A stretch of 64,000 bases of DNA, taken from positions 10,369 through 74,368 of the forward strand of contig JADHWJ010000001.1 in assembly GCA_016783545.1 (NCBI GenBank). Reading direction: 5' to 3'. Below the pieces are notes generated by a model, which saw nothing but the letters and a program-made list of their open reading frames with translations, was not told the DNA's origin and ran no database searches. Below are positions 23,230 through 63,997 of this stretch, in pieces. The first letter of the stretch is position 1; every line of letters starts with the position of its first letter. The stretch comes from Candidatus Aenigmatarchaeota archaeon. GTDB taxonomy: Archaea > Aenigmatarchaeota > Aenigmatarchaeia > QMZP01. Position numbers and translations under genes: made by a program.

Positions 23230-23231
23230 CT

Positions 23232-26200
23232 ATGAACAAAAAAATTAAAGCCCAAGTGGAAATATTGACAATAGTTTTAGTAGCTGCAGGAATAATTGTA
23301 GCTGTAGTGTATGGTGGGACAATGGAAGAGCCGAAAGGAAAATTTGTAGAATCAGCTATAATATCCCTCCAAAATACAATGTGTACAGACCCTGCTAATG
23401 CATATTCATTCTCTGGTGGTGTTAGAACCACATGTACATGTTATCTTGCTTTTCAGCCATACGCAACTTCGTTTTCCACTGCCTATCCTGTTGATGTTGA
23501 ATATCTGGGCCTTGTATGGGAGGGCGCTGAAGGATTCTGTTATGGGCTTCAAATAATACCAGAAGGTGCTGAGCCTGGAATAATGCCACCCGGTGGCGGA
23601 GTAACTCCCCCATCAGGTGAATGCCCTGGTTATGATTGTTCCCCTCATGATGCAAGCAGAGTTAGTAAAAAATTCACTGTTAGCTATAACATCCATCCTA
23701 ATAAAGACAAGAATAATATATTTGGTAATTTGATGGCTAAAGTGAGAATATTGGATGAAAATAGCCCTCCTAATGAAATAGAAATCCTCGATGATGCTGA
23801 TGTTAGTATTGACATACCCAGTAGCTGCAATGCTGTTGGTTCATTAGACTGCAAAGTGGAAGTTTATGTTGATAATCCAGATCCATCGCATATGAAAGAT
23901 GGATATGCTTGGATGTTTTATTTGGGCCAGGCAGCTAAAATTGCTAAAACAGATTGTGATAGTAGCGGAGCATGTGATGGAATAGACTGGGCCGATGGCG
24001 ACGATGTTGATATAGTGGGATTTGAATTTCCAACTTCTACGTTGCCGGTGTTCCCCTTTGGCATGCAGCCAGGAACATTTGAGAGAGCTTTTGATGGTGT
24101 TGAAATCAGAGATTTATGCCTTGAATGGCCTGTTACTGACGGTGAAAGGCTGGAACCAATAACCATTGGTCCCTATTCTGATCCAGTATGTAATTGTAAA
24201 AATCCAGGAGATGGTCCTTATGAGGGATTCCAGAAAGAAGAGAGTGGTAGTGCTCAATGCGTTGAAATTGTTGACACCGGATATGTTAGATTTGAAGACT
24301 ATAACGATGTGGAAACATACGTGTTTTCAAGGGGGGAGAACATGTTCTGCACTGCCCGTATAGACACTTTTAATGATATTGAACCTGTTAATCCAAAAAT
24401 AGAAATTTTAATGGTTAAGGAAGGAGATATTGACAACCCTTTGACAAAAAGCGGCGAAGATGGTAATCCAACCTGTAATTTTAATGAGGACTGTGTAATA
24501 GGATATGATACCCTTGGGATAACAGATTTCAGTTCAGGTCCTGTTAACATTGAGTGTTATGTGAAATACAGCTTTGATGCATGGAATTCCAGGGAATATA
24601 AGAGCATGCCTGAAATGATGTTCCTTAATGGTCCAACCGCTGTTCATCATGTCCCACTGCCCAGTGCGCAGGTTTTCCCATGCCCTGATAAAACCTTAGC
24701 ACAACCTTATCCTAATCCAGAAATACCCGAACTTGGAGAGGAATATTGTGTGTGTGTGGAGAGTGTAACAGTTCCTGATGGAACGTTAGATTTAGATGGT
24801 ACATACGGGCCTGATATGAAGTGTCATATATTACCAATACTCCCAAGTACTATTTTTTATGACGAAGATGGGAATAAAAGGGGAAAAGTCCCGAAAGGCG
24901 ATGTAAGTGTTATAGTGGAGGGAGAAAAATACAAAGACAGTGATGATGTGATTGCCAGGGGATATTTTTATGGCAGGTACGTTTCAGATGATACTGTTAC
25001 ACCACCTGTTGACTGTGAAACAACAATCAATATTAAAAGAATACGTACCGACGCTTCCGGAGCTGAGCAAACAGAGGATTTTGAAGGTACTGATAACTGC
25101 TGCGATGCTAATGAAATATGCGAATTAACTTTCCTTGACGCTGAAACAGAACCATTTGACAAATTTGAGGCCTACATGGCATACAAATTCAAGGTTTGGG
25201 ACGGTGTTAATGAGATTCCAATAACAGGGTACATAGAAGGCGACACTTTAGCCATGGGAATAGGTGACACGTCAGAGGCAGAAGTTGCTCCCTGTCCGGA
25301 TGGATTTGAAACATCTATATATACAGATGCTGTTGGTATTGGTTATAACATATGCATTTGTGGTGATCAGAACGAAGGCTTTACAAGACCAAAGATAGGT
25401 GACGATGATGGTGTTTGCGTCAAGTCAGATATTGAAAATATGAGGTATGGAGATCTTTACACAGAAGAAATCATAGGATTTATGCCTGCTGGTGGTAACT
25501 ATTACACATCTGAAATTCAACCAAAATGTATAGCAGATATTGAAATTGAGAACGGGGAGATAGACAGTGATACTATTGTAGAAGTGAAAGGATTTTTGGA
25601 AGCGGTTGAATATGGGGATGATACTGTAGTGCAGGATTATACTCAAATGTGTGATATTTCACAAGCTGAATGCACTGTTAGTCTTTCTCCACAATCTAAA
25701 TTTCTGTATACAAAATGCAAGTTTAATGAGGATATTTTAACTTGGAGTGGAAAAGCAGACATAACAATTAGAAAACCTATTCAATTTCAACAAATCCAAC
25801 CAGAAGAAAGTATAATGATTATACCGGTTGGTTATATTAAGGGAACTATAAAAGGATGTAGAGATGTTAAAGGAGTTAGAACATGCGCAGAATTGGAAGA
25901 TGTTGAAATAAAATTAATTAGCAGCCAGGTAAATCCACATAAGGTGTGTAATGAATTCCCATGTAATGAAATAGCTGGCGTAACCGATGCAAACGGAAAC
26001 TTTGATATCGGGCCGATATATTCCCAATTTGATGATACTGATAAATTCCTTTTCAGGTTGATGGTTAACTCAGGTGGCATGGAATATTTCTGGGACGGTA
26101 ACCAAATAATGAATGATACTATCTGGGAGACGTTTAATATCCCTTTGAATAGTTATAAAGATTTTGGTGTTTTGGAAATTGAAATGCCTCCGTGCAAAAA

Positions 26201-26558
26201 ACTGCAGGAGATCGGAGAAGGTAAGGATAAAATGGAAGATTTAATTGATGAATTCAATAGTTGCTTGAATAACAATGCATGTAAAATGTTCTGCCAGCCT
26301 AGTTTAAACATAAAAGACGAATATAAAATGAATCTTGGGTCATTAACAACTGTTGTTGATTCAGTCCTGGACGCTCCAATAGTATTATATCAGAGACTTT
26401 TGCTGGGAGTGGTTGACAAGGTAAGATTGATAACTTTCAATAAAGTACCGGTTGTTTCAGCACTCAAAAGTTATATTAATTTATTCACACCCTATCTTAT
26501 TTGGCATGGGGATTTTGAGCTTATTGAAAGAAATAAGAGTTGGTGGCAGATATGGTAG
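23232..26558 (+). CDS. large (about 1100 aa) surface protein with a pilin-like class III signal peptide
   Basis: MNKKIKA|QVEILTIVLVAAGIIVAVV has a basic n-region, then K-A, then Q and E, then a 20-aa hydrophobic stretch, matching archaeal prepilin-peptidase substrates. The body is Cys/Asp/Gly-rich. Confidence 0.5.
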   Translation: MNKKIKAQVEILTIVLVAAGIIVAVVYGGTMEEPKGKFVESAIISLQNTMCTDPANAYSFSGGVRTTCTCYLAFQPYATSFSTAYPVDVEYLGLVWEGAEGFCYGLQIIPEGAEPGIMPPGGGVTPPSGECPGYDCSPHDASRVSKKFTVSYNIHPNKDKNNIFGNLMAKVRILDENSPPNEIEILDDADVSIDIPSSCNAVGSLDCKVEVYVDNPDPSHMKDGYAWMFYLGQAAKIAKTDCDSSGACDGIDWADGDDVDIVGFEFPTSTLPVFPFGMQPGTFERAFDGVEIRDLCLEWPVTDGERLEPITIGPYSDPVCNCKNPGDGPYEGFQKEESGSAQCVEIVDTGYVRFEDYNDVETYVFSRGENMFCTARIDTFNDIEPVNPKIEILMVKEGDIDNPLTKSGEDGNPTCNFNEDCVIGYDTLGITDFSSGPVNIECYVKYSFDAWNSREYKSMPEMMFLNGPTAVHHVPLPSAQVFPCPDKTLAQPYPNPEIPELGEEYCVCVESVTVPDGTLDLDGTYGPDMKCHILPILPSTIFYDEDGNKRGKVPKGDVSVIVEGEKYKDSDDVIARGYFYGRYVSDDTVTPPVDCETTINIKRIRTDASGAEQTEDFEGTDNCCDANEICELTFLDAETEPFDKFEAYMAYKFKVWDGVNEIPITGYIEGDTLAMGIGDTSEAEVAPCPDGFETSIYTDAVGIGYNICICGDQNEGFTRPKIGDDDGVCVKSDIENMRYGDLYTEEIIGFMPAGGNYYTSEIQPKCIADIEIENGEIDSDTIVEVKGFLEAVEYGDDTVVQDYTQMCDISQAECTVSLSPQSKFLYTKCKFNEDILTWSGKADITIRKPIQFQQIQPEESIMIIPVGYIKGTIKGCRDVKGVRTCAELEDVEIKLISSQVNPHKVCNEFPCNEIAGVTDANGNFDIGPIYSQFDDTDKFLFRLMVNSGGMEYFWDGNQIMNDTIWETFNIPLNSYKDFGVLEIEMPPCKKLQEIGEGKDKMEDLIDEFNSCLNNNACKMFCQPSLNIKDEYKMNLGSLTTVVDSVLDAPIVLYQRLLLGVVDKVRLITFNKVPVVSALKSYINLFTPYLIWHGDFELIERNKSWWQIW

Positions 26559-28534
26559 TCTATAAAAAAGCAAACAAGAAAGGAAATATATTTCTTTTAG
26601 TGTTTACTGTAACTATATTATTATCATTTCAAGCAGTATTTGCGCAGCCAGATCTTTGGGTTTATATAACCATAGAAGAAAACCCGGTAAATGCCAGCAT
26701 TAACATACCAATATACATAGCTAATATGGGAAACGAAACAGCAGAAAGTGTAACTTTGAGAATAGAAGACTTTAGTATTATTTCAGAAGAAACCCTTATC
26801 ACAGTCCAAGATATAGTTCCAATAGAACCTGGTGTGGTTGAACTGCTAAACTATGAAGTGAATGAAAGCGGAAAGCATATGATATCAATAATTGCAGACA
26901 CAACAGATGAAAAGTCTGCTATAGACAATTGGCTTCTTCTCTTCCCGACAAAAATCATTGAAGGAAAAGATCTTAGGGTGGAGCTTTCAGATCTTGATGA
27001 AGAGTATGTTGAAGACAGTATAGCTGGAGTTAGGGTTTGGCTGGTAAATATTGGCAACCAGGATTTGAGTAATGTAGTGGCGGACCTGTCAATTACAAAT
27101 AATGACACAACAGAATCCATATGGAATGCGACAGTAGATATTATTCAAAGCGGTTCATATGATGAGCTTGTTAGATGGATACCATCAGGTGGAGAGAGTA
27201 CAATCACTTTAACTGCAACTGTTGATGGTGATGTTAACCTTACAAACAATGTGGATGTAATAGGGGCTTCTACAACTGCTTTGATGGGTGTGAATTTTAC
27301 CTTAACAGACAATGAAGGAAATGGTATAAACCAAACCGTGGAGTTTGAAGACCATTATAGGATTAATAACGAAGAAAATGTTCTGATATTGGTGCCAAAC
27401 AAAACACAAAAAATAATATCTGAGACAAAGGTTGGTTCAGAAATCAATGAAATAAAGTTCCTTGGTTCAAATCCAAGCGAAATGATGGAACTTGTTTTTG
27501 AAAAAAACAATGGCAAGTCATTTGCCGGTAAATATTTCTATCAGATTTATTCATTCAGGCCAAGCTGGGATTATTTAGGTATGGAGATTGTATTTAATTC
27601 TTATCAAAGAGCAAAAAAAGATGAATTCTCAATATATGCATGCTCTGAATGGGATTGGGCAGGAAAGGACTGCAATAGCCAATGGGAAGAGCTGGAAACT
27701 TTGCAGGGTTCCATAAAGGGTGTGGTTGATGATGCAGAAGCTGTTGCTCTGCTGGGCCCTAATTGTGGTAATGGGATATGCGATTCAGGGGAAAGCAGTG
27801 CCAATTGTAGAGAGGACTGTCCACCAGCTATAACAGGGGGACCAGGTAGCTCACCAGGAACAAGTCCTGGGACAGGACCAGGACTTCCAAGCCAGCAACA
27901 AAAAAGCAAATCAGTGACAATCTCAGGTATAGGTGAGGTATCGCTTAATATAACAGCAAGGACAGTTGGTGAAGTAACTATAGAACAGAGAGAAGCGCCT
28001 GCAGTTCAGCCATCTGGAGTTGTTTATACCTATCTGAACATAGATCCAAACGCAGTAAATGTTGTATCAGCAGAGATAAGATTCCAGGTAAGCAAAGAAT
28101 GGATATCAGACAACGAAATAAACAGCAATATGATTAATCTCTTGGAATTCAAAGACAACAAATGGATTGCTCTGGATACTACGCAGACAGGCCAAACAGA
28201 TAGTTATTTGGAATACAAAGCAACTGTAGAAGGGTTTTCAATATTTGCAATATCGGGTGAAAAGATTGCTAATGTATGTGAAGAAGGAAAACTTTGCACA
28301 GAATTCAAGCTGATGAAATGCGAAAACAATGAATGGGAAATAGAAAAGGCATGCATATACGGATGCAACAATGAAACACTCGATTGTAATCCATTACCAA
28401 AAGAAAAACTGACACAGAAACTGCCTAAAATAATAGAGGATTATTCTCTCTATATAATCATAATAATTATAATTGCGGCTGCACTTGGGATAGCTGTGTT
28501 AAAATTTGGATTCTTTGGAAAGAAGAGAAGATAA
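26540..28534 (+). CDS. cell-surface protein with Sec signal, Pro/Gly/Ser linker and C-terminal TM anchor
   Basis: Signal peptide ...FLLVFTVTILLSFQAVFA|Q. It contains a CGNGICDSGESSANCREDC module, a PGSSPGTSPGTGPGLP linker, and the C-terminus IIIIIIIAAALGIAVLKFGFFGKKRR. The start may instead be the ATG at 26552. Confidence 0.5.
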   Translation: MVADMVVYKKANKKGNIFLLVFTVTILLSFQAVFAQPDLWVYITIEENPVNASINIPIYIANMGNETAESVTLRIEDFSIISEETLITVQDIVPIEPGVVELLNYEVNESGKHMISIIADTTDEKSAIDNWLLLFPTKIIEGKDLRVELSDLDEEYVEDSIAGVRVWLVNIGNQDLSNVVADLSITNNDTTESIWNATVDIIQSGSYDELVRWIPSGGESTITLTATVDGDVNLTNNVDVIGASTTALMGVNFTLTDNEGNGINQTVEFEDHYRINNEENVLILVPNKTQKIISETKVGSEINEIKFLGSNPSEMMELVFEKNNGKSFAGKYFYQIYSFRPSWDYLGMEIVFNSYQRAKKDEFSIYACSEWDWAGKDCNSQWEELETLQGSIKGVVDDAEAVALLGPNCGNGICDSGESSANCREDCPPAITGGPGSSPGTSPGTGPGLPSQQQKSKSVTISGIGEVSLNITARTVGEVTIEQREAPAVQPSGVVYTYLNIDPNAVNVVSAEIRFQVSKEWISDNEINSNMINLLEFKDNKWIALDTTQTGQTDSYLEYKATVEGFSIFAISGEKIANVCEEGKLCTEFKLMKCENNEWEIEKACIYGCNNETLDCNPLPKEKLTQKLPKIIEDYSLYIIIIIIIAAALGIAVLKFGFFGKKRR

Positions 28535-43302: not shown

Positions 43303-46300
43303 TTAGGCAACTTTATGGTTTAGAGCAGGCGGAGTTTTAGCAGCAGGAAGTACACCACCAGGTCCATGAGCGTGAGGTGGTATGCCAGTTCCAGTCGGCT
43401 TGTCTGCTCCAGCACCGCCCGCACCTGTTCCAGGAGAGATTGCCCATATCATGGCAACTATACAAAGCAGGGAGAGTATGCTGCTCAATCCCATCATGTC
43501 GTTTCCAAAATCCCCATGACTGCTTATACCACCTCTCAACCCGTCTACATTATCTGCATTACAAAGCGACTCCTTTGATTTTTTCAGCTGATCCAGCTCT
43601 TGTTTGGCCTCTTCATATTTTGTCAGGGCGTCTGAAGCAAGGCAGAGAAGGATTGCTGTTGCAAACCTGCAGTACCAAGGAGCGGTCTCGCCCTTATCAA
43701 GAGCTGCTTGGCACACCGCATAGATAATAACAACAGCTGAGATATATTGAGTGAATTCTTCTTTTCTCTTGTCAATTTCGTCTTCTAAATCATCAATATC
43801 AGCTTTAGTTTTTTCACAGTTTATATAATCCAGACTCTTGTTGCCTTTGATTATCAAAGTCCCAGTGGCAGAAAGGTCTCGTGTTGAAACAGTTTCTCCT
43901 TCTTTGTATTCTACTGTAACAAACAAACTGAGAGATCTGTTAACCTTCCTGAGTGCCCTTAACCCATTTTCTATAACAGGTGGTAGTATGGGACATGATA
44001 TATTAATGCTCTGGTTTGTTGAATTAAGTACACTGCAATATGTTTCAGAAATATCACTATCATTGAATTGATATGAACTGCTCTTGAGCTTGGTAAAGCC
44101 TGCAGGAGGATTTTGTATCAGTGCGCTCACCTCAAATGATTGAGTCGATACACATTGCTTTTTCAAATTCACTGAACATTCAATAGGGTTTGGTATATAC
44201 ATATTCAATAGCATTGAATCACTGCTTATACATTCTCCATTCTCTTTAGCACCATTATAACAGAATTGTTCACCCGGACAACCGCAATCCAGACAGCAGG
44301 TGCCTGCTGACTCTCCGACATCATTTTCACATTTACCATCACCGCAATGCGGAATGGGTTTGATTGTAAACAACGGCAGGTCTGCTCTTAGTGTGCCTCC
44401 AACTGTTTTGTCACCGTTATTAAATCTTATCCAAAAGCTAAGGTTTCCTGGTGGAAACCTGACTATACCATTAGGTCTATCAAATAATTGTGAGGTGTTA
44501 TAATCTACTGTGGGTAGCGTCAAATTGCACGCAAAACGCACATCCCCGATTTCTTCACATTCAACAGTACAGGGAACATCATCATCAAACTCGCATGTGG
44601 AACTAGTGAAAATGAACCCTTCTGGTGGCTTTTCAACCATAACAGTCATTTTTGATTTATGATGTATTGTTGTATCCTCAAAATCTTTTTTATCATACTC
44701 TTCAATAATCAATCTTATTTGGGATTTTAACTCACAGCTATCTCCTGGTGTAAATCCCCCCAAATCTTGAGTACTGCAATAATAACCATCATCACACCCA
44801 CAATCATAGCAGCAATTGTTGCTGGTCTCCCACGGTTCATCACAAATTCTATTCCCGCATTGCATCAAACCTATTGAAATGCCTGGTGCAGAAGCTTCCA
44901 GTCGTTTCAAGAGAGCTCCATGTGTACCATCCATGTAGCTTATATTAACAGCTATATCTGGGTTCAATGTATATACTTTTGAAGAATTATATTCAAGCAC
45001 CTGAAATCTTAATGAACATGTCGCATTGTATATGTTTGTATCAGAACTAGGAAGCCCAGAGCATGTTAGTGTGCATGTGGATATGCAGGGAGTTCTGTCA
45101 GCAGTGCATTCAGTTGAACATGTTGTAGAAACAACGCTCATTGTTTTTGGTTTGTTTTGTATATTGATTAATAGATTTACAATTTCTGTGGAAGTTCCTT
45201 TATAGAATGAAAGTGGATTGGCTTCAATAATTACAAGATCACTGTCTATTGGATCTAACCTGCATTCAGCTTGTGTATGATCAGAGACATTATAATCACA
45301 ATAACCTGTTACACAATCACAATCATAGCAGGAATTCTGCTCGTTTTCTCCTAAATCTCTTTGACATTCTCCATCGGCTGGAAACCAGCTAACAACTGTT
45401 ATATCATCAAAATTCCCTTCTAATGTTTTATAAACAGTATCAGCACCATCTGGAAAATTTGTATCCATAACAAGACTGTTAGGTCCTATTGTAAATGTAC
45501 CAGAATCACAATCTGGATCAGCAAATAATGTTATATTACATTTGTATACTTCCCTAACCTTTGCACATGTTGTTGGTAGTGTGGTTTGGTTCAGCCTATA
45601 CATTACACTGTCAAGGTTTATACCACTTGGTTCATTGTCAATAATAACAGAGAGCTCTATCTCATTATCAACTTTGCAGTTAGTTATGCCTGTATTTCCA
45701 GATATGCTAAGCGTTATGCTATCAAGATCTTTACACCCCTTTCCTATATCACAATAATCACTTTCAACACCACAGCCGCAATCAAGACAGCAGTTTACAG
45801 AATTTTCCCCAATACTACCTTCGCATTTCTCACCAGGTGAATCATACCCGGGTCCAAATCCACAGTGATAGTCTGTTACATTATGCAAAGTAATGGGGTT
45901 GTATACACCATTATCATTTTCAGAGAAAACAACCCAGAAATCAGCATCAATTGTCTCTACAGCACTTGCATAACTTTCAGATGTTCTGAAACTGGCAGAG
46001 TCCATTTCAGCTTCATCTCCTTTGATTATATACAATTTGTTACTGTCTGCAAAAACAGCCCTTTCTGTGATATCAGAACGGAAAGGAACTATTTCATTAA
46101 TCCTAACAAAGTCCCTTATGAAACTAAACCTTCCGATTGAATTTGTGTATAAGTTGACTCTATCCAGCTCTCTATTGACTTTGAATAGAACACTTCCTGT
46201 TTTCATTACTTCTTCCCAAAACCCAATCCAGCCAACAGCGCCGCCAACCCTTGTTTTAACAAGCATGAGGATGTTTGCCACATCATCACTTGATATATCA

Positions 46301-46614
46301 GAAAATGGATAAGTTTTTAAGAAATCACCTGAAGAAGAATCATAATCTCCAGCATCTATGCATTCTTTTGGATTTTTATCCGTGCATTTATACACCTGGA
46401 CCTTTTCGATATTGTCTCCCCCCAAAGAGACTGAAACATCATTTCCGTTTAAAGAAATTGATTTAGTTGCTATATCCCCTGGATTTAATTGAACTGTATC
46501 AGAACTCACTCCATAAATCATATTGATTTCAGTTGCGAAAGCAAATGGCATTGAAAAAATTAAATATGTCATGGATATTGCAAACACTTCGAGTATCATT
46601 ATTTTATAATTCAT
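43303..46614 (-). CDS. large secreted Cys-rich protein with four copies of a CG-x-G-x-C...GE-x...CC-x-DCGC module and a multi-TM C-terminal region
   Basis: Signal peptide MNYKIMILEVFAISMTYLIFSMPFAFA. The four repeats are GEKCEGSIGENSVNCCLDCGC, GECQRDLGENEQNSCYDCDC, CGNRICDEPWETSNNCCYDCGC and CGDGKCENDVGESAGTCCLDCGC. The C-terminus has a coiled-coil stretch and hydrophobic helices. Confidence 0.55.
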   Translation of the reverse strand: MNYKIMILEVFAISMTYLIFSMPFAFATEINMIYGVSSDTVQLNPGDIATKSISLNGNDVSVSLGGDNIEKVQVYKCTDKNPKECIDAGDYDSSSGDFLKTYPFSDISSDDVANILMLVKTRVGGAVGWIGFWEEVMKTGSVLFKVNRELDRVNLYTNSIGRFSFIRDFVRINEIVPFRSDITERAVFADSNKLYIIKGDEAEMDSASFRTSESYASAVETIDADFWVVFSENDNGVYNPITLHNVTDYHCGFGPGYDSPGEKCEGSIGENSVNCCLDCGCGVESDYCDIGKGCKDLDSITLSISGNTGITNCKVDNEIELSVIIDNEPSGINLDSVMYRLNQTTLPTTCAKVREVYKCNITLFADPDCDSGTFTIGPNSLVMDTNFPDGADTVYKTLEGNFDDITVVSWFPADGECQRDLGENEQNSCYDCDCVTGYCDYNVSDHTQAECRLDPIDSDLVIIEANPLSFYKGTSTEIVNLLINIQNKPKTMSVVSTTCSTECTADRTPCISTCTLTCSGLPSSDTNIYNATCSLRFQVLEYNSSKVYTLNPDIAVNISYMDGTHGALLKRLEASAPGISIGLMQCGNRICDEPWETSNNCCYDCGCDDGYYCSTQDLGGFTPGDSCELKSQIRLIIEEYDKKDFEDTTIHHKSKMTVMVEKPPEGFIFTSSTCEFDDDVPCTVECEEIGDVRFACNLTLPTVDYNTSQLFDRPNGIVRFPPGNLSFWIRFNNGDKTVGGTLRADLPLFTIKPIPHCGDGKCENDVGESAGTCCLDCGCPGEQFCYNGAKENGECISSDSMLLNMYIPNPIECSVNLKKQCVSTQSFEVSALIQNPPAGFTKLKSSSYQFNDSDISETYCSVLNSTNQSINISCPILPPVIENGLRALRKVNRSLSLFVTVEYKEGETVSTRDLSATGTLIIKGNKSLDYINCEKTKADIDDLEDEIDKRKEEFTQYISAVVIIYAVCQAALDKGETAPWYCRFATAILLCLASDALTKYEEAKQELDQLKKSKESLCNADNVDGLRGGISSHGDFGNDMMGLSSILSLLCIVAMIWAISPGTGAGGAGADKPTGTGIPPHAHGPGGVLPAAKTPPALNHKVA

Positions 46615-48380
46615 TTAATTACACCTCCACAGTTATCTTCTACCATCTCCACGAGCTCTGTTGCATCAAAGCCTGTTTCTGATTTTGGTATATAGGCATC
46701 AAGGCTTGAGCTTACAGAGAATTCATGTTCTTTCAAAAACTCACCTAACAGTAAACCACTTTCAGCATCTGAAGCTGTTGCTTTAACTACATATGTTCCA
46801 GGGGCATATCTCAGAGTTAATGAAGTGGTTAAGCATTTTGAAATACATCCATCAGGGTCAGGTCCAGCTAAACATAAAGAAAAGCACTCAGCATCCACAT
46901 TTGTTGCAGAAGAATCATCAAGATTAATCTCAACCAGTGCTTTCTCATCCCTGACATCTGTTACAGCGCAATCTAATGCGTTAATCATCTGCAAATTGAA
47001 CAGAACTGTTTCAGATTCCTTTCTTACTAGCTCAAGTTCCAGATCTTCAAGGTCATCAGAATCAAAAGCATCTCTAAATGGATCATATCCCTCTTTATTT
47101 ACATAGAGCATATCAATACCGCATTTTACAGAACCCTCTACAATACCCCTGGAATTTGTTGTTCCAATAGGACAATCACCAAACTGTACACGCGCACCGA
47201 AAACAGGCTCCCCTAAATCATTTTCCATTGTTATTTTAGCACTGCAGTCAAGATTGACACAATCATCTTCAATAGGATCTAAATCCAAATTGCATTCGCC
47301 TTCGTCTGGTTCCAATCCGTCAATTCCTACCAACAGCGCAAAATGAAATGCGTGTCCAGAGAGCTTATCATCAACCCTTAAAACAAGAGGATAATATAAT
47401 GAATAATAATGTTCGTATATGGTAAGGCATTGCTGGAAATCAAGTCCGCTGTATCCTGGATCAACTTCATGATCGCCATCATCACAAATTTTCACTGGCC
47501 TATCAACTTCTATTTCGAACCCATCTGATTCAAAAAATCTTATCTGAAGATCTGGATATGTTCTACCGCCCAAATCTTCAATTCCAAATGTCATAGCACC
47601 TTCTGGTGAAGGCTGAATATCTCTCCACCAAAAAGTATTAGTAACCACAAAATCAACAATATTTTCCATTAGTGTTGATACCTGCTCCTTTGAGAGATAT
47701 ATACACTCATCACATTCCATTATAAGCCCTTGCATAGGAAGGAAGCTACTTGACATGTAAAAACCAGTTATTGTAAACCAATCAAAATATCTTTCATTAA
47801 TATTATCATTGACAAGATCATTTGAGAAATCAATTATTCTTCCAAGACTTGAGGAGATGGTGATTTCATATGGTTCAGTTATAAGATAACCGTCTATTTT
47901 TGTTGGTATAGTGGCAGTAAATACAATTTTATTATCCAATATATTCGCAGAAACAACAACGTCTGATAAGTCGAATTCCACTCTCTCCCCAACATCGTTT
48001 GTTAAAGTATTTATTATATAATTTTTAACACCCTCTTCGAGTCTAACTTTAAAAGTACCTTTTGAAACCGTTATCTTCTCACCACATCTCTGCCAATAAG
48101 GAACAACTATACCTGCAAATAAGACGCTTCTATCTAGTGGTGGATCAAAATAACCGCCATGTATGCTTAGATATTCAAGAGACATGTCCGCACCTTCAGT
48201 GATAACGTCTTTAACAGACTCTCTGACAAATTTCTCCCTTTGCATTATACTATACGGTATTGTGGTTGGTTTAAGAACATCTGTCTGCATTGCAAAGAAT
48301 ATGGCCAATACAGCGATTACAACAATGCCCATGATAAAATAAATAGTACTTTGAGATTTCATGTGAAACATTCTTATCAA
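46611..48380 (-). CDS. membrane-anchored extracellular protein, co-operonic with the Cys-module protein
   Basis: 589 aa with an N-terminal TM (IYFIMGIVVIAVLAIFFAM). The body is acidic and Cys-containing. It makes a 4-nt overlap with the downstream gene. Confidence 0.45.
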   Translation of the reverse strand: MIRMFHMKSQSTIYFIMGIVVIAVLAIFFAMQTDVLKPTTIPYSIMQREKFVRESVKDVITEGADMSLEYLSIHGGYFDPPLDRSVLFAGIVVPYWQRCGEKITVSKGTFKVRLEEGVKNYIINTLTNDVGERVEFDLSDVVVSANILDNKIVFTATIPTKIDGYLITEPYEITISSSLGRIIDFSNDLVNDNINERYFDWFTITGFYMSSSFLPMQGLIMECDECIYLSKEQVSTLMENIVDFVVTNTFWWRDIQPSPEGAMTFGIEDLGGRTYPDLQIRFFESDGFEIEVDRPVKICDDGDHEVDPGYSGLDFQQCLTIYEHYYSLYYPLVLRVDDKLSGHAFHFALLVGIDGLEPDEGECNLDLDPIEDDCVNLDCSAKITMENDLGEPVFGARVQFGDCPIGTTNSRGIVEGSVKCGIDMLYVNKEGYDPFRDAFDSDDLEDLELELVRKESETVLFNLQMINALDCAVTDVRDEKALVEINLDDSSATNVDAECFSLCLAGPDPDGCISKCLTTSLTLRYAPGTYVVKATASDAESGLLLGEFLKEHEFSVSSSLDAYIPKSETGFDATELVEMVEDNCGGVIK

Positions 48381-54623: not shown

Positions 54624-55028
54624 ATGGGTCATAGAAGCAGCATACCTCTATATTGGAGATTACAGAAATCAAAGTATAATTTAGTTGGAACAAAATGCAA
54701 AACATGTGGAAAGCTCTATTTTCCACCAAGACAGCTCTGTTCAGAATGTAGAAGAAAGGGTGAGATAGAAGACTTTAGTTTCTCTGGTAAAGGAGAGATA
54801 ATTTCATTTACAGTTATAAGAGCAGCCCCAGAAGGATTTGAAAAATACACACCTTATGCAATTGCATTAATAAAACTGGAAGAAGGTGAAGTTATCTCAG
54901 GTCAGATAGTTGGTGATGTTACTAAAGTCGAAGAAGGAAAAAAAGTGAAGTCTGTTTTCAGAAGAATGCATGAAGACGGAAAAGATGGCGTCATCTTTTA
55001 TGGTGTCAAATTTCAATTAGTTGGTTAG
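54624..55028 (+). CDS. DUF35 OB-fold/zinc-ribbon scaffold protein of the thiolase-HMGCS complex
   Basis: CKTCGKLYFPPRQLCSECRR is a rubredoxin-like zinc ribbon, followed by an OB-fold. Its start abuts the thiolase stop. Confidence 0.8.
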   Translation: MGHRSSIPLYWRLQKSKYNLVGTKCKTCGKLYFPPRQLCSECRRKGEIEDFSFSGKGEIISFTVIRAAPEGFEKYTPYAIALIKLEEGEVISGQIVGDVTKVEEGKKVKSVFRRMHEDGKDGVIFYGVKFQLVG

Positions 55029-57610
55029 AGTATGTCCATATCTGTCTTATTCAGCCTCTTTTCAAATAGTTTCATTAATCTGTATGTCATGGAAGCTGGG
55101 AATTTTTTATAGAATCGCCTGAAAAGAAGCCCTTTTCTAATTCCTTTACCAATAACACTTTCCCATTCTTTTTCATATTGGCTTAAGAAGGATTCTGAAA
55201 AATTATTTTCTCTAAGAGCTTTTTGAATTGTTTCAGCTGCTTTTTCAGCTGCTGTAAACCCATAAACAACACCACCACCACTATTATGAAGTATTAATGG
55301 ACCAAGGCCTCCTATAAACATATTACTTTTTGGAACTTCTATATCAAAAACATCTCTATTTGTTTTTATTTTTCTAATCTCTTTTATAGGGAGAAGTATC
55401 ATTTTATTTTTAATTAATTTTTTTATAAACTCTTTTTCTCTACCATTTCCAATTTTATTCAAACCTTTCAATAATTTTTCATAACTGAGAATATTACAGC
55501 TTTTGTTTTTACATCTATTTGAAATGTATTTTCCAACCTCAGTTTTTATTAGTTCATTTATCATATCATTTGATAAAATGTTTTTTGGAAAACCAAATGT
55601 GGGTCTGGATTTAATATTATTTAAGTATTTTTTAATTTCTATTTTATTTGGGAAAATATCTGAAAGTTTTTCTAAATCTTTTTTGGAGGAAAAACTAATT
55701 TTATATGATTTACTGGTTTTTATTTTTTTATTGTAGAATGAATGTACTCTGCTTTCTGATTCCTCAACTGATGGAAACAAACCCAGTTGCAATGAAAGTA
55801 TAATAATATCACTGGCAAGTTTACGGCTAGCTGTTTTAGAAGAAATTTCTGCAGACCAATTTCTTCTTTTTTCTGGCATTCTAACTCTGCAGAATCCATC
55901 ACCTTTCATATAAGCCTTTAAAAACTCAATCTTCACTTCATCTGAAATGTTGAAAATTATATATGGAATTTGTTTATTATATGCATTCTTACCCGTTTCC
56001 AGTATGTCAGTAAATATTTTGGCAAGTAATTTTCCACCAAAAGATATAGGAAATTCTGTTTCTTCTTTTGTATACGGATTTTTTCTTGGTTTCCAGAAAC
56101 TTATATTAATTCCAAACGTTTTACCAATACAATCTATTAGATCATCCATAATACCGTTTTTAATATCATCTTTTCCTAAGGACATGTGAATGTGTTTACC
56201 TTTTGATGAGTCTCCTTCAGCAATATAATAACCGAGAATACGGCAAAATTCAGGTGTTATTTTAATTATATTCGGAATTTCTACTTTCTTTTTTGGAGGT
56301 TCATAGACAATTCTGACATCTTTAGGTATAATTTTTTCATTCAAAAATAATTTTAGAGGTATAGAGTCGCGGTCCCAATATGTTGTTCTATAATTTATTG
56401 GAACTTCAGAACGCTTAGAAAAAAGAAGTTTTTTCCCTCCTCTAACACGAATTTTTTTCACAAATTCGGGATATTTTTTTATTATCAAATTAATTAAATT
56501 CAGTTCTGTTATATTATTTGCATTATTAGGAACACTTGAAGTAAAAAGTAAGTGATCTTTTTTAGGTTCCAATTCAGAAACTTTTTTAGGCATCAAATTA
56601 AAATCATTTACACAAATTACACTGTGTGAACCTGTTGTCTTAACCCTATAACCTTTATTTGTGATTATTTCAAACATGTTTTCATCCAGTTTATGTTCTA
56701 AACACGATTTTATTTTCATAAAATTTAGAAGAGAAGCATTCTTAGATGGTGAAAATGCATAAATATTTTTTATTTTATTGTTTCTAAAATTGTTAACTAC
56801 TTCTTCTATCTTTACATTTTTTATAAGTCCGTTTTCTTTTATAATTATACTTTCTTCTCCATCAATGCTCCACGGTTTGACCTGTCCTGCTGCATCTCCA
56901 ACTAAGAGAACTCTTTCAGCATAGCTTTTACAGCTACCGATTGGTATCAAAGCGCCCATTCTTTCATAGTCTTTAAGATCAAAGAATCTTTCCAAATCTA
57001 GAAATTTTGCATTCTTTCCAAGTATTCCATATTCTGTTGTTTCCCCTCTTGGAATCTTCCATAGAAAACCATCAGTTATTTTTTTATCATACCAGAGCTC
57101 AACAAAATTATTATTATTTTTTTCTGAAACAGTTGCTATTAGACCATTTACAAGTTCTGTTCTATATCCAAGGAAATCCCTGACAGAAGAGCTTGCACCA
57201 TCACAACCAACCAAGAGTTTTGTATTTAACTTCCCTTTAGTAGTTTCAACAATCAGATGATCTTTAGCCTTTTCAAAACCAATGAACTTTGTATTGAGTT
57301 TAATTTTGGATTCAAGACTCTTTGCAAGACTCTTGTCAAATTTTGACCTATCTAAAACATAGGCCGCTGTCTTTTCTTTGACTAGATTTATAGTGCCTGA
57401 ATTGAAATGTATTTTTGCACCCCTCACTTCATGTTCTAGAAAGTCCTTATTTACTGGAACGAATTTTTCCAAGTTAGTTGATATTAGACCAGAACATGGT
57501 TTCTTACCAATATGGTCTTTGCTTTCAAGAATAACAACATCCAAATCGCTTAGCTTATGTGCTAAGAAAAGTCCAACAGGTCCTGCACCAACAATAACAA
57601 CATCATGCAT
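55025..57610 (-). CDS. geranylgeranyl reductase family flavoprotein interrupted by a 529-aa intein
   Basis: The N-terminus is VVIVGAGPVGLFLAHKL (FAD GxGxxG). The N-extein ends ...VGDAAGQVKPW and the C-extein resumes SGGGVVYGF, so the reconstructed GDAAGQVKPWSGGGV matches the conserved GGR motif GDAAG..P..GGGI. Confidence 0.75.
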   Translation of the reverse strand: MHDVVIVGAGPVGLFLAHKLSDLDVVILESKDHIGKKPCSGLISTNLEKFVPVNKDFLEHEVRGAKIHFNSGTINLVKEKTAAYVLDRSKFDKSLAKSLESKIKLNTKFIGFEKAKDHLIVETTKGKLNTKLLVGCDGASSSVRDFLGYRTELVNGLIATVSEKNNNNFVELWYDKKITDGFLWKIPRGETTEYGILGKNAKFLDLERFFDLKDYERMGALIPIGSCKSYAERVLLVGDAAGQVKPWSIDGEESIIIKENGLIKNVKIEEVVNNFRNNKIKNIYAFSPSKNASLLNFMKIKSCLEHKLDENMFEIITNKGYRVKTTGSHSVICVNDFNLMPKKVSELEPKKDHLLFTSSVPNNANNITELNLINLIIKKYPEFVKKIRVRGGKKLLFSKRSEVPINYRTTYWDRDSIPLKLFLNEKIIPKDVRIVYEPPKKKVEIPNIIKITPEFCRILGYYIAEGDSSKGKHIHMSLGKDDIKNGIMDDLIDCIGKTFGINISFWKPRKNPYTKEETEFPISFGGKLLAKIFTDILETGKNAYNKQIPYIIFNISDEVKIEFLKAYMKGDGFCRVRMPEKRRNWSAEISSKTASRKLASDIIILSLQLGLFPSVEESESRVHSFYNKKIKTSKSYKISFSSKKDLEKLSDIFPNKIEIKKYLNNIKSRPTFGFPKNILSNDMINELIKTEVGKYISNRCKNKSCNILSYEKLLKGLNKIGNGREKEFIKKLIKNKMILLPIKEIRKIKTNRDVFDIEVPKSNMFIGGLGPLILHNSGGGVVYGFTAAEKAAETIQKALRENNFSESFLSQYEKEWESVIGKGIRKGLLFRRFYKKFPASMTYRLMKLFEKRLNKTDMDIL
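55283..56869 (-). mobile_element. intein with LAGLIDADG homing-endonuclease domain inside the GGR gene
   Basis: It begins SIDGEESIIIKENG...KTTGSHSV (splicing blocks A and B). It contains LGYYIAEGD and LKAYMKGDG (LAGLIDADG motifs) and ends ...GLGPLILHN, followed by Ser+1. Confidence 0.7.
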
Positions 57611-61057: not shown

Positions 61058-63997
61058 TTACTTTTGCCAAGGCCTTTTCTTTTTCCTTTTAGTAGCAGAC
61101 TTGACCCTTTTCTTTACATGATGAACAGCTCTTTTTATGTTTTCACTTCTGTTTTTTTTTGGACTGAAACCGCGCTGTGGGCTATATCCAGAAGGAGGTG
61201 GTAAAAGTAAATAAAGGAGTAGTACAGCAACAATAATTGCCACAGTCACACCAACCCATAACCATGGATTAAGCCACCATGCACCGGCAGCTTTTTCTAT
61301 AACTTCTTTGAACTCGGACTTTACCCTTTCCAATTCAGTTAGTGTGCTGTTAAGTGTTGTTGTAAGCTCTGTGAGAATAGTTTCTGCGGTTGCATAATTC
61401 TCATTGTTTATTGCAGTTAGTGCAGAAGTTAGCTTTTCATTACTGCTATTCAGTAGACGTTCAACCTCAGTGAGATTTTCACTAGGCACAACACCATAAG
61501 AAACTATGCTCCTAAATTCTGTTGATAGGTTGCTGAATATGGAAAGAAGCGAATAATATGATTCGTTTATTCCTTCAAGTCTTTCAGTTGTTACCATTAC
61601 ATCAAAAAGGAATGTTTTTTCATTCTTTATTGTATCTCTGGCTGCATTTTCATAAGCAATAAATTTGCCTGAATGATTTCCTAGTGAAGAAGTATTTGAT
61701 ATATTAAATGTTACATTGTATACACAGCTCGCATTTAATCCAAGTGAACAGGAAGCAGGTGCGACAGATGCTGTGATATCACTGCTTATATCTATATCAA
61801 GCTTGGATAATATTGCCCTCTGACCTGTATTGTTAACTCTTATTTTTGTAAAGTTTGAACCCCCTGGAATACCACTCAAAAAGCTTACATGCTCTGTAAT
61901 AAGAAGTGAATCAGGTATACAAATATGATTTACTATGGCTCCCAAAGAACAGGGTACGGCTTTACATGTGCTTGTACTGGTGTCACAATATTGATTTGAA
62001 GCGCAGGTTGAATTTGAACTGCAAGAGTCACCTGTGCCTGCATTATTATTATTACCACTAGATGTAGAAACCTCAACAACTGACACACCACCGGATATGC
62101 TGGAATATGTATTGTCTGTTGCTGTGATTGATACTGGGCATGCTGTTGTGGAGCTCACATTTCCAGCTGTAAGACTCCAATAGTACCAGCAGATTTCAGT
62201 CCCGTTTTCAGTTATGTTTATCTGAGCCACATTGCTTCCGGTTGCATAAGAACCACACCCATCTTTTTTGTTGTTAAGCACGGGTGTTATAGTGCTGCAG
62301 GTTGATAATGTTATGTTACCAGTTGCAGGTAGATTACCAAAATTCACAACACTCATATTGTAATAGATAACAGTGTCCTCATTTGTTGTCCGATTCGCAT
62401 TGCTTATGAAAGTAATGTTCAGTCCAGTTCTATTAATTGTTAGAGGATAATTATAATTGCTTCCAGAGAACGAAAGGTTGTCCTTGATATAACTGGCATT
62501 CACATATACTCGATATTTTCCGCCAGGTATACCTGTTGGTATGCTTACGTTTATGTTATATATATTTGAAGAGTAGAGTGGTGAAGTGCCATTGTATTCT
62601 GTTAGAAAACTGCTGCTTGACGTTGGATATCTGTATGTTGTGACATTATTTTCCACAAGCCATACTGTAAAGTTCTCTAGTTGAAGAGCATTTATCAGTG
62701 TATTGTTCAGCAATGAAACATTTGTAAATATAGTTATATTCTCAGCCCTTGAGACATTCTCAATTTCAGTGTTTCCATCAGCTGTTTTTATCTGCGTTAT
62801 ATTAACAATAAGGTCATTTGTAAGATTTACCTGAACTGTCAGGTTAAAGCCCTGATAAGGGTATGCATCTGTTGCATTAAGATATATCCAGCCTGCATAC
62901 ACACCTTCCCGATTACCTGTTTCATTGGTGTCTACTGTAAAGTTTATTTCCATTTGGGTACTGGAACCAATCGTAAGGTTATTTGGACATGAATATGAGA
63001 AGTTTATACCATAACTGCTGCTTGTGAGATTAGTTGAATTTGTGCAGTTAATTGATGTGATGTTTCTGTTTCCTGTGTTGTTTATTGGTATTGATATCTG
63101 CAAATCAGTACCGCTCCTATTAAATCCTATATTATCTCTTATCTGGACAGTATCAGATTCAAATGTACTGTTTACCAGAAGAGTGCCTGTTGTCACATTT
63201 ACTGAAAGAGGTGTTGAGAGTATTGCTCCTCTACTATCTCTGTAATCGAAAAATCCTTGGTATAGACCACTGATACTTGTATTTGGTATGGTAAATGTTA
63301 GAGCAAAGTTCTTTGTGTAATTGCTTACATTAGTTATGTTAAGGCTTGTTGTTGTATAATTAGAGCTTAGCCAAGTGTTTACAAAGAACATAAGATCGAT
63401 TGTATAGTTGCCGTTCATGACAGTGTTGTTTAGAACCTCTGCCCTCCAAATACCTTTGGTGATAGATGTTGTTTCAATAAACTCTTCTTGCATTGCCCCT
63501 GTGACATTTGCATTCACTCTTTTACCTGTTGAATTGGAAACCAATGTTCCATTTGGCAAATACAAACTGAGAGTGTAATTTGTTCCATCTGTCCAATTGA
63601 TCAAAGTCTTTACCCGTGTTGCGTATGAAGGAACAGTGAAAGTATAATTATTTGCTATGGTTGAATTAGACCTATCCAAATGATAAAATCTCTTTAATTC
63701 TACTGTACTTAATGAGGTAAGATTTCCATCATTCCTCAAAGTAATATTAACAGTGGTGTTCTCGCTAATATTCATCTCACCAAAACTTAGATTATATATT
63801 GTATTGTTATTGCTAGTGTTTGTCAAATTCAATGATGTGAAATATAAATTACCAGTGTAGTTTTCTGCTGCTGTGAAATTTCCATATAACCTTATCTCCC
63901 ATAGACCAGGCGTTAGATAGCTGTAATTAAGCACTTCAGAATTAGTGCTTTTACCTGCTGACTTGGAAGCGAATAACGAATTATTGAAAAGAAACAT
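61058..63997 (-). CDS. S-layer/surface glycoprotein candidate: Asn/Thr-rich with dense N-x-S/T sequons and a C-terminal TM anchor; the N-terminus probably lies beyond the window
   Basis: At least 979 aa with dozens of N-x-[ST] sequons (NFTA, NYTG, NLTN, NTSN, NISE, NTTV, ...). The C-terminus is WLWVGVTVAIIVAVLLLYLLL followed by the basic tail KKRVKSATKRKKKRPWQK. There is no signal peptide at the first in-window Met, and the frame is open to the window edge. Confidence 0.5.
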   Translation of the reverse strand: MFLFNNSLFASKSAGKSTNSEVLNYSYLTPGLWEIRLYGNFTAAENYTGNLYFTSLNLTNTSNNNTIYNLSFGEMNISENTTVNITLRNDGNLTSLSTVELKRFYHLDRSNSTIANNYTFTVPSYATRVKTLINWTDGTNYTLSLYLPNGTLVSNSTGKRVNANVTGAMQEEFIETTSITKGIWRAEVLNNTVMNGNYTIDLMFFVNTWLSSNYTTTSLNITNVSNYTKNFALTFTIPNTSISGLYQGFFDYRDSRGAILSTPLSVNVTTGTLLVNSTFESDTVQIRDNIGFNRSGTDLQISIPINNTGNRNITSINCTNSTNLTSSSYGINFSYSCPNNLTIGSSTQMEINFTVDTNETGNREGVYAGWIYLNATDAYPYQGFNLTVQVNLTNDLIVNITQIKTADGNTEIENVSRAENITIFTNVSLLNNTLINALQLENFTVWLVENNVTTYRYPTSSSSFLTEYNGTSPLYSSNIYNINVSIPTGIPGGKYRVYVNASYIKDNLSFSGSNYNYPLTINRTGLNITFISNANRTTNEDTVIYYNMSVVNFGNLPATGNITLSTCSTITPVLNNKKDGCGSYATGSNVAQINITENGTEICWYYWSLTAGNVSSTTACPVSITATDNTYSSISGGVSVVEVSTSSGNNNNAGTGDSCSSNSTCASNQYCDTSTSTCKAVPCSLGAIVNHICIPDSLLITEHVSFLSGIPGGSNFTKIRVNNTGQRAILSKLDIDISSDITASVAPASCSLGLNASCVYNVTFNISNTSSLGNHSGKFIAYENAARDTIKNEKTFLFDVMVTTERLEGINESYYSLLSIFSNLSTEFRSIVSYGVVPSENLTEVERLLNSSNEKLTSALTAINNENYATAETILTELTTTLNSTLTELERVKSEFKEVIEKAAGAWWLNPWLWVGVTVAIIVAVLLLYLLLPPPSGYSPQRGFSPKKNRSENIKRAVHHVKKRVKSATKRKKKRPWQK

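Follow-up and report, generated by a model that had tools for sequence, protein, structure and literature searches.

In a 64,000-nt chromosomal stretch of the DPANN archaeon Candidatus Aenigmatarchaeota archaeon (assembly GCA_016783545.1, contig JADHWJ010000001.1, positions 10,369 to 74,368; 36% GC; hereafter the window, within which all coordinates are given), the minus-strand gene at 43303-46614 encodes a 1103-aa protein that alternates four copies of a cysteine-rich module with four immunoglobulin (Ig)-like domains. Our reading, to which we give a probability of roughly 0.5, is that this protein is a surface stalk or spike, namely a Sec-exported, C-terminally membrane-anchored, and disulfide-stapled Ig rod, which would act with a pilin-type partner encoded next to it in adhesion or cell contact. 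The architecture itself, that is, an exported and anchored rod of four units combining an eight-Cys knot with an Ig-like domain, an N-terminal head, and an obligate pilin-like partner, is well supported, while we infer the role in adhesion or cell contact from this architecture, the gene neighborhood, and the lifestyle of DPANN archaea. Modular disulfide-rich Ig-rod surface proteins are already known as a kind; judged from sequence, the novelty lies in the family and in the module, neither of which matched a Pfam or NCBIfam model.

A preliminary description of this locus, made from the nucleotide letters and their translations, had reported four copies of a roughly 25-aa module spaced through a secreted protein. 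The copy number stood up well: the core pattern C.DC.C occurs at aa 276, 429, 602, and 774, against 0.012 occurrences expected and a maximum of two in 20,000 composition-preserving shuffles of the 1103-aa protein, and a hidden Markov model (HMM) built from the modules of homologues alone recovers all four window copies with independent E-values (iE) of 3e-9 to 9e-16. The module is nevertheless longer than proposed, spanning about 40-45 aa with eight Cys and the consensus C-G-[DN]-G-x-C-E-x3-G-E-x4-C-C-x-D-C-G-C-x2-G-x-[YF]-C-D-x(5-14)-C. Together with an Ig-like beta domain of ~125 aa, which is also present four times, it makes up a full repeat unit of ~170 aa, hence the 153-173-aa spacing of the module copies. 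The Ig-like repeats were recovered by leave-out HMMs at iE of 9e-21 to 1.5e-9. In total, the protein contains 56 Cys, which represent 5.1% of its residues, and is mildly enriched in N-x-S/T sequons (16 versus 10.6 expected). Mean pairwise identity among homologues amounts to 43-51% for the modules, 24-35% for the Ig domains, 27% for the N-terminal domain (N-domain), and 20% for the membrane region; the modules are the best-conserved part of the protein.

In an AlphaFold2 (AF2) model of unit 4, derived from an alignment of 24 units, a small knot containing one short helix and a beta-hairpin is followed by a beta-sandwich of about eight strands (predicted local distance difference test score, pLDDT, 92.2; predicted TM-score, pTM, 0.86), and the second half of the module is the predicted beta-hairpin. 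The full-length protein, modeled from 42 sequences, reached a pLDDT of 82. Foldseek comparison of the unit model with the PDB returned AggA, VNAR, IL-18R, BTLA, and others with probabilities of 0.97-1.0 and TM-scores of only 0.3-0.5; AF2 and Foldseek thus both place the ~125-aa domain in the Ig-like fold, with matches that are generic. For the full model, the matches were confined to multi-Ig ectodomains and rods of adhesin-like type, namely KIT, DSCAM, integrin legs, alpha-2-macroglobulin, and the S-layer protein SbsC. One further unit match was the archaeal fusexin Fsx1 (7p4l_B, E 6e-3), whose large ectodomain precedes helices and about three hydrophobic segments as in the window protein. 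Such likeness could point to a membrane-fusion or bridge protein of fusexin-like function that drives a hydrophobic helical hairpin into the host membrane. We regard this as extremely improbable, as that lone match is to a generic Ig-like domain with a TM-score of 0.31, the class-II three-domain arrangement of Fsx1/HAP2 was not seen, and Fsx1 is absent among the top Foldseek matches of the full model. Moreover, the gene is chromosomal and syntenic, lying outside mobile elements; tblastn against phage records gave no match; and no true module was found in viral contigs.

As a separate observation, the best matches of the full model in BFVD were AMDV3_1 (E 9e-16) and AMDV4_2 (2e-13), both multi-Ig arrays, with TM-scores of about 0.09. 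Their records say only 'uncultured virus', and we take 'AMDV' to denote acid-mine-drainage viruses. We judged these matches generic and discarded them as meaningful relatives.

The two ends of the protein qualify the term 'secreted' used in the preliminary description. At the N-terminus there is indeed a hydrophobic signal-like segment, whose last residue, Ala27, is invariant across 42 homologues. The protein is, however, predicted to be anchored in the membrane at its C-terminus, and the several hydrophobic helices previously noticed there were recovered in the model. AF2 places helices at aa 928-973, 980-1019, and 1036-1058, within which a charged juxtamembrane helix precedes three hydrophobic ones (about 951-972, 980-1000, and 1036-1058); an amphipathic helix separates the last two of these. 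The beta-rich N-domain matches no known family, as Pfam scans were negative and a profile search against PDB sequences yielded nothing significant. Table 1 collects the coordinates of these features and of those discussed below.

Table 1. Coordinates of the parts of the 1103-aa protein gene, its partner gene, and the short motif elsewhere in the window
Feature	Position	Strand	Basis or remark
1103-aa family protein gene; product runs from the signal through the N-domain and four (8-Cys module + Ig-like domain) units to the helical membrane region and the disordered tail	43303..46614	-	
N-terminal hydrophobic signal-like segment, aa 1-27, ending AFA before TE	46534..46614	-	AF2 helix 3-21, strand from aa 28
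Beta-rich N-domain, aa 28-245, one conserved Cys pair (C77, C85)	45880..46533	-	AF2 pLDDT about 90
Cys module 1, aa 251-294, 8 Cys, 9-aa insertion between C1 and C2	45733..45864	-	
Ig-like beta-sandwich 1, aa 297-410	45385..45726	-	Repeat HMM, AF2
Cys module 2, aa 417-451, 6 Cys, C1 and C3 both absent	45262..45366	-	
Ig-like beta-sandwich 2, aa 454-580, extra Cys	44875..45255	-	Repeat HMM, AF2
Cys module 3, aa 586-627, 8 Cys, long C7-C8 loop with conserved FTPGDSC	44734..44859	-	
Ig-like beta-sandwich 3, aa 630-751	44362..44727	-	Repeat HMM, AF2
Cys module 4, aa 757-795, 8 Cys	44230..44346	-	
Ig-like beta-sandwich 4, aa 798-926	43837..44223	-	AF2 pLDDT 92.2; Foldseek generic Ig-like
C-terminal helical region, aa 928-1058	43441..43833	-	AF2 pLDDT 63-72
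Gly/Pro-rich disordered tail, aa 1059-1103	43306..43440	-	AF2 pLDDT <50
ATGA overlap of partner stop and big-protein start	46611..46614	-	Same 4-nt overlap in L001, L003, and L004
Upstream partner gene, 583 aa from ATG at 48362	46611..48362	-	Likely start, agrees with NCBI gene call P0007
Partner class-III (prepilin-type) signal-like N-terminus, MKSQ then STIYFIMGIVVIAVLAIFF	48288..48362	-	
Short 4-Cys form CGNGICDSGESSANCREDC (C1, C2, C3, C5) in 664-aa surface protein at 26540-28534	27764..27820	+	

The pattern of Cys losses among modules bears on how these residues are bonded. All eight are held by 373 of 713 distinct modules, C2 and C5 are missing jointly in about 137 (single losses, 3 and 1), and C1 and C3 are missing jointly in about 32. 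Paired loss is the signature of disulfide partners, and we therefore infer C1-C3 and C2-C5 bonds. C4, C6, C7, and C8 would form two further bonds, with too few informative variants among them to assign the pairs. The dense CC-x-DC-x-C spacing is also able to chelate metals, and sample names suggest that many relatives come from probably anoxic habitats, in which making extracellular disulfides is more difficult. The module Cys could accordingly bind Zn or Fe-S rather than each other, rendering the repeats metal-stabilized or redox-active. We consider this very unlikely, since losses in pairs (about 137 joint versus 4 single for C2 and C5) are typical of disulfides and not of four-ligand sites, and a short 4-Cys form of the module, described below, retains precisely both proposed pairs. 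His or Asp ligand patterns are likewise lacking, and the context is extracellular.

Homologues of the 1103-aa protein delimit a family of its own. A word-indexed search retrieved only six relatives at 26-30% identity, while an exhaustive profile search returned 295 representative clusters at E<=1e-3, 172 of them at E<=1e-30. About 100 clusters are full length and carry the parts in the same order, i.e., a signal ending in A-x-A before T, the N-domain, modules at about aa 265, 420, 590, and 770, and one to four C-terminal hydrophobic helices. The members fall into three types: type A is window-like; type B keeps only the second half of module 2 and carries a long extension at the C-terminus; and type C holds 7-10 modules, of which the initial five or six form a tandem array with a spacing of about 42 aa. 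All 15 family loci with a phylum named in the record are from Aenigmatarchaeota, and the others derive from archaeal metagenome-assembled genomes (MAGs). None of the 42 members scanned matches any Pfam family, and scanning four large window proteins against Pfam and NCBIfam gave nothing meaningful for the 1103-aa protein. By these comparisons, the family appears to be uncurated, with no Pfam, NCBIfam, or PDB sequence match.

A translationally coupled, membrane-anchored partner of 589 aa had been placed downstream of the large gene. The coupling is evident in the ATGA overlap of both reading frames (Table 1), but on the minus strand the partner lies upstream, and its product is probably 583 aa long, the longer version stemming from an alternative TTG start at 48380 in the open reading frame (ORF) list. 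This protein is identical to NCBI ISS36_00300 of a 'Candidatus Aenigmarchaeota archaeon' MAG. Rather than as a plain membrane-anchored protein, we now regard it as type-IV-pilin-like. Its N-terminal sequence fits the pattern of archaeal class-III (prepilin) signals, i.e., a basic start, a small residue at -1, Gln at +1, and a hydrophobic stretch, and six homologues begin with M[RK]K[AG]Q.E ahead of some 20 hydrophobic residues. One of seven partner homologues has a weak Arch_flagellin match (E 0.0036), and neither Pfam and NCBIfam scans of seven partners nor a profile search of PDB sequences revealed anything that accounts for the 560-aa body. Modular large type IV pilins, e.g., Streptococcus sanguinis PilB, add adhesive functions to pilin scaffolds (PMC8179133). 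Like PilB, the partner joins an N-terminus of pilin type to a large globular part at the C-terminus, but it differs from PilB in the archaeal class-III motif ([KR][GAS]Q) and in a body that matches no known domain.

Both genes travel together. Among the 26 family genes whose upstream sequence could be assessed, 22 lie immediately behind the partner, and the other four lie behind another family gene. The order partner-then-big protein also occurs in L001-L005 (L numbers designate loci of relatives), and tandem duplications come in two forms, of the whole pair or of the big gene alone (L004; L050, L052, L056, L097; L076/L080), as exemplified by the duplicated pair at L004 2060-13360 (+). Several MAGs contain two or three divergent pairs on separate contigs. 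Over 22 pairs, pairwise identities among the partners track those among the big proteins with r=0.957, a value reached by none of 5000 label permutations and to which shared phylogeny also contributes. Furthermore, partners sort into the same types A, B, and C as the big proteins, even within one MAG (L001 versus L087). The correlated identities and the matching types within a single MAG therefore indicate that the pair duplicated and diverged as a unit.

Type-B pairs close a conserved operon in which six small genes, five of them encoding [KR]GQ and hydrophobic N-termini, come before the genes of the pair, and a gene for an Ig-like protein of about 518 aa follows downstream (L002 3398-16907; also L005, L009, L016, L055, L069, L071, L082, L087, L112, and L115). 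The window lacks all of these extra genes, and a pilus ATPase or platform gene was not found within the 10-kb flanks of the type-B operons. The closest genetic analogue of this arrangement would be the minor-pilin/PilY1 operon, in which a large Sec-signal protein of ~1100 aa likewise comes directly after several pilin-like genes. With six pilin-like genes, namely the partner and five of the small genes, the type-B operon resembles the bacterial fimU-pilVWXY1, and the big protein has, like PilY1, a Sec-type rather than a pilin-type signal and about 1100 aa. It could then be, instead of a resident membrane protein, a pilus-borne accessory adhesin that sits on the tip of a type-IV-like filament, with the partner and other minor pilins priming that filament. 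This alternative is unlikely in our view. Three C-terminal hydrophobic helices do not suit it; homology to PilY1 was not found, and neither a von Willebrand factor A (vWA) domain nor a beta-propeller is present in the archaeal family, whose 42 scanned members lack Pfam matches and whose AF2 model consists of Ig-like domains and helices. Besides, the window type-A pair comprises a single pilin-like gene, with no pilus machinery found nearby.

The window pair is surrounded by housekeeping genes (ribosomal proteins L10 and P1, alanyl-tRNA synthetase or AlaRS, PolB, Cdc6, and the phenylalanyl-tRNA synthetase PheRS), and the order AlaRS, partner, big protein, rpP1-L10-L1 is common to the window, L001, L003, and L004. 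This stable place between AlaRS and the ribosomal protein genes suggests a vertically inherited core function, as would befit a two-component surface layer (S-layer) or envelope scaffold with a structural, not adhesive, role, the big protein being a SlaB- or tetrabrachion-like stalk and the partner the second lattice subunit. Archaeal surface-layer proteins typically combine Ig-like arrays with a helix and a C-terminal anchor, the S-layer protein SbsC appears among the Foldseek matches, and SlaA/SlaB of Sulfolobales are likewise encoded by a two-gene operon, one product of which combines beta-sandwiches, a helix, and a C-terminal membrane anchor. However, the Sulfolobales proteins are not homologous to this pair, and a prepilin-type partner and multiple paralogous pairs per genome set the Aenigmatarchaeota system apart from them. 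Neither such a partner nor three hydrophobic helices are traits of S-layers. A structure-prediction survey, available as a preprint, also assigns to this phylum a different S-layer protein, an MSTP-like beta-sandwich with orthologues across DPANN (10.1101/2024.05.28.596244), and no Pfam domain of such MSTP-like (DUF1608-type) tiles was found in the 1103-aa protein or the 42 members. Two to three divergent pairs per MAG, of varied lengths and with 3 to 10 modules, fit adhesin-like diversification better, and we deem a scaffold role quite unlikely.

Under the stalk reading, Sec would export the big protein, and its C-terminal helices would anchor it in the membrane of the same cell. With the disulfide knots stiffening them, the Ig domains would form a rod with a length of a few tens of nanometers, as roughly estimated from typical domain sizes, which would hold the N-terminal head beyond the envelope. 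In this setting, the Cys knot would serve as a rigid, protease-resistant spacer like the EGF-like (epidermal growth factor-like) or tumor necrosis factor receptor (TNFR)-type modules of eukaryotic receptors. Prepilin peptidase would trim the pilin-like partner, which would either stay in the membrane or enter a short pilus-like fiber, and in both cases would bind the rod as its cognate subunit. In line with the lifestyle of a DPANN episymbiont, the complex would mediate attachment to a surface or a host cell.

Several points weigh against this proposal. The head has no binding fold recognizable by Pfam or PDB profile search, the predicted membrane topology of the three C-terminal helices is tentative at a pLDDT of only 63-72, and the about 28 disulfides would require an oxidizing agent. 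Genes for a pilus ATPase, a platform protein, or a prepilin peptidase are absent near the pair within the 64-kb window. In addition, type-B relatives (P0005, P0006, and others) continue for 400-800 Cys-rich and beta-rich residues past a single hydrophobic helix at aa about 950, and this region would be cytoplasmic under a simple out-to-in topology. More tentatively, we propose as a possibility that the cassette is an undescribed, Aenigmatarchaeota-specific, pilin-dependent, and disulfide-stapled spike that grips the host, which in its type-B form may include the five further pilin-like genes and the downstream Ig-like protein, with the module as a new, widely distributed superfamily of prokaryotic extracellular domains (DPANN, Methanosarcinales, CPR, Myxococcota), counterpart of the EGF-like spacer.

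The module extends well beyond this family. Running the degenerate DNA pattern GE-x4-CC-x-DCGC over species-representative genomes, followed by HMM confirmation, yielded matches at >118 loci and 108 ORFs with confirmed modules, 238 modules altogether. Outside the family, carriers among DPANN include Woese-, Pace-, Nano-, Undin-, Micr-, and Iainarchaeota and Altiarchaeia; other archaea are represented by Methanosarcinales, and bacteria by the candidate phyla radiation or CPR (Peribacteraceae, Saccharibacteria), Myxococcota, Omnitrophota, and Atribacterota. In these proteins, the module occurs singly or in arrays, often beside a membrane anchor and fused to beta-helix, M14 peptidase, or transglutaminase-like domains, and some relatives have tandem arrays without an Ig domain. 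Two proteins consist mostly of dozens of short 4-Cys and long 8-Cys modules, a 1647-aa CPR protein from Peribacteraceae (L065 2461-7401, -), which also mixes in DUF4215 repeats, and a 1539-aa Undinarchaeota protein (L010 1785-6401, +). The earlier notion of a modular disulfide-knotted extracellular domain is supported in that the strong conservation, the tandem arrays, and the presence in unrelated surface proteins of many lineages mark the element as a genuine, autonomous extracellular Cys module; the paired Cys losses lend the disulfide bonding indirect support. Pattern matches in Acidobacteriaceae, Anaerolineae, and Schekmanbacteria were dismissed as chance because of in-frame stops, those in Planctomycetota and Symploca contained no HMM-confirmed module, and a viral origin was discarded, the sole IMG/VR match being an out-of-frame chance match in DNA of 60% GC.

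Comparison with curated families required scanning excised repeats. Hmmscan of the entire L065 and L010 proteins reported nothing, and only their excised repeats were detected; this tool misses repeats inside long Cys-rich proteins, even those of DUF4215, and the lack of Pfam or NCBIfam matches in whole-protein scans of tandem-array proteins is accordingly unreliable. We therefore relied on isolated repeats, for which DUF4215 was detected as a positive control on the myxo-type repeats of L065 (1.7e-8). Under these conditions, 22 isolated modules found no Pfam or NCBIfam match at E<=10, EGF- and TNFR-like families included, and the isolated module and short form were negative for DUF4215 and every Pfam model. 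The best PDB sequence match of the module profile was the eggshell CREMP (E 1.1), and we found no description of the family or the module in the literature on surface proteins of the phylum and on the motif. DUF4215 (PF13948), which we take to be the Myxococcus cysteine-rich repeat CGNG..E.GEECDDGN...DGC, shares with the module the CG[DN]G start, the acidic GE motif, the extracellular location, the tandem arrays, and the L065 protein itself. Its Cys pattern is nonetheless different, and hhalign aligned seven columns, CGDG only, with a probability of 1.1%.

By analogy, the closest functional counterparts of the module would be the EGF-like, I-EGF (integrin EGF), and TNFR-type spacers of eukaryotes. 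These are also small (about 40 aa), autonomous, disulfide-rich, and extracellular, occur singly or in tandem, and act as rigid spacers alternating with Ig or fibronectin type III (FN3) domains in membrane-anchored adhesion receptors. Unlike them, the module is prokaryotic, mostly from DPANN, and devoid of a Pfam sequence match. EGF has six Cys bonded C1-C3, C2-C4, and C5-C6, a pattern from which the module departs with its eight Cys and proposed C1-C3 and C2-C5 bonds.

The module had also been claimed for the 664-aa surface protein at 26540-28534, at positions 27766-27822. What is present there, at 27764-27820 (the former coordinates being 2 nt out of frame), is the short 4-Cys form and not the full module. 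It aligns with the first half alone (HMM positions 5-27 of 50) and scores E 1.4e-3 with a small HMM and 2.8e-6 with that of the 713 modules. In addition, this protein matches CARDB weakly, contains a PGF-pre-PGF domain (5.5e-24), and has an anchor at its C-terminus. A profile of 100 short motifs from other loci matched module columns 5-29 with an hhalign probability of 96.7% (E 4.3e-10, 23 columns), which supports homology between the first half of the module and the short, uncurated CGDGxCxxxExxxxC(P)xDC motif of archaeal and CPR surface proteins. Both forms even occur in the same arrays (L010, L065), the short one differing by its four Cys and the lack of the beta-hairpin extension with C4, C6, C7, and C8. 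Reuse of the module across the organism's surface proteome, as originally envisaged, was not demonstrated within the 64-kb window, which offers only this half-form and a doubtful half-motif in a 979-aa ORF; by sequence matches, reuse is documented across phyla and not within the genome. The latter ORF (61058-63997, -) carries at aa 645-692 the sequence CSSNSTCASNQYCDTSTSTC, which weakly resembles the module's second half (iE 0.02) and may be a degenerate half-module or due to chance.

Other large genes in the window deserve mention. At 21580-28534 (+), three overlapping ORFs of 549, 1117, and 664 aa with 20, 43, and 12 Cys resemble a second surface-protein operon; the first two have no Pfam match, and the 1117-aa protein starts with a class-III-like signal (..KKIKAQ then VEILTIVLVAAGIIVAVV). 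The 1616-aa ORF at 15960-20810 (-), with 46 Cys, a Sec-like signal, and a C-terminal hydrophobic anchor but no Pfam family, looks like another large surface protein. At 55025-57610 (-), an 861-aa FAD-dependent oxidoreductase with a FAD_binding_3/Lycopene_cycl-like N-terminus is split by an intein (Intein_splicing 1.4e-14) that carries a LAGLIDADG endonuclease domain.

To our knowledge, the means by which DPANN archaea hold their hosts are largely unknown, and we know of no cultured member of Aenigmatarchaeota. The co-diverging pair of a pilin-like protein and an Ig/Cys-knot rod, with several paralogues per genome, is a concrete candidate for the machinery of DPANN-host contact. More widely, surface proteins of DPANN, Methanosarcinales, CPR, and Myxococcota commonly use the 8-Cys module and its 4-Cys core as building blocks. 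The proposed disulfide map is a testable structural prediction, and a curated model of the module would annotate many 'hypothetical' surface proteins and mark their extracellular regions.

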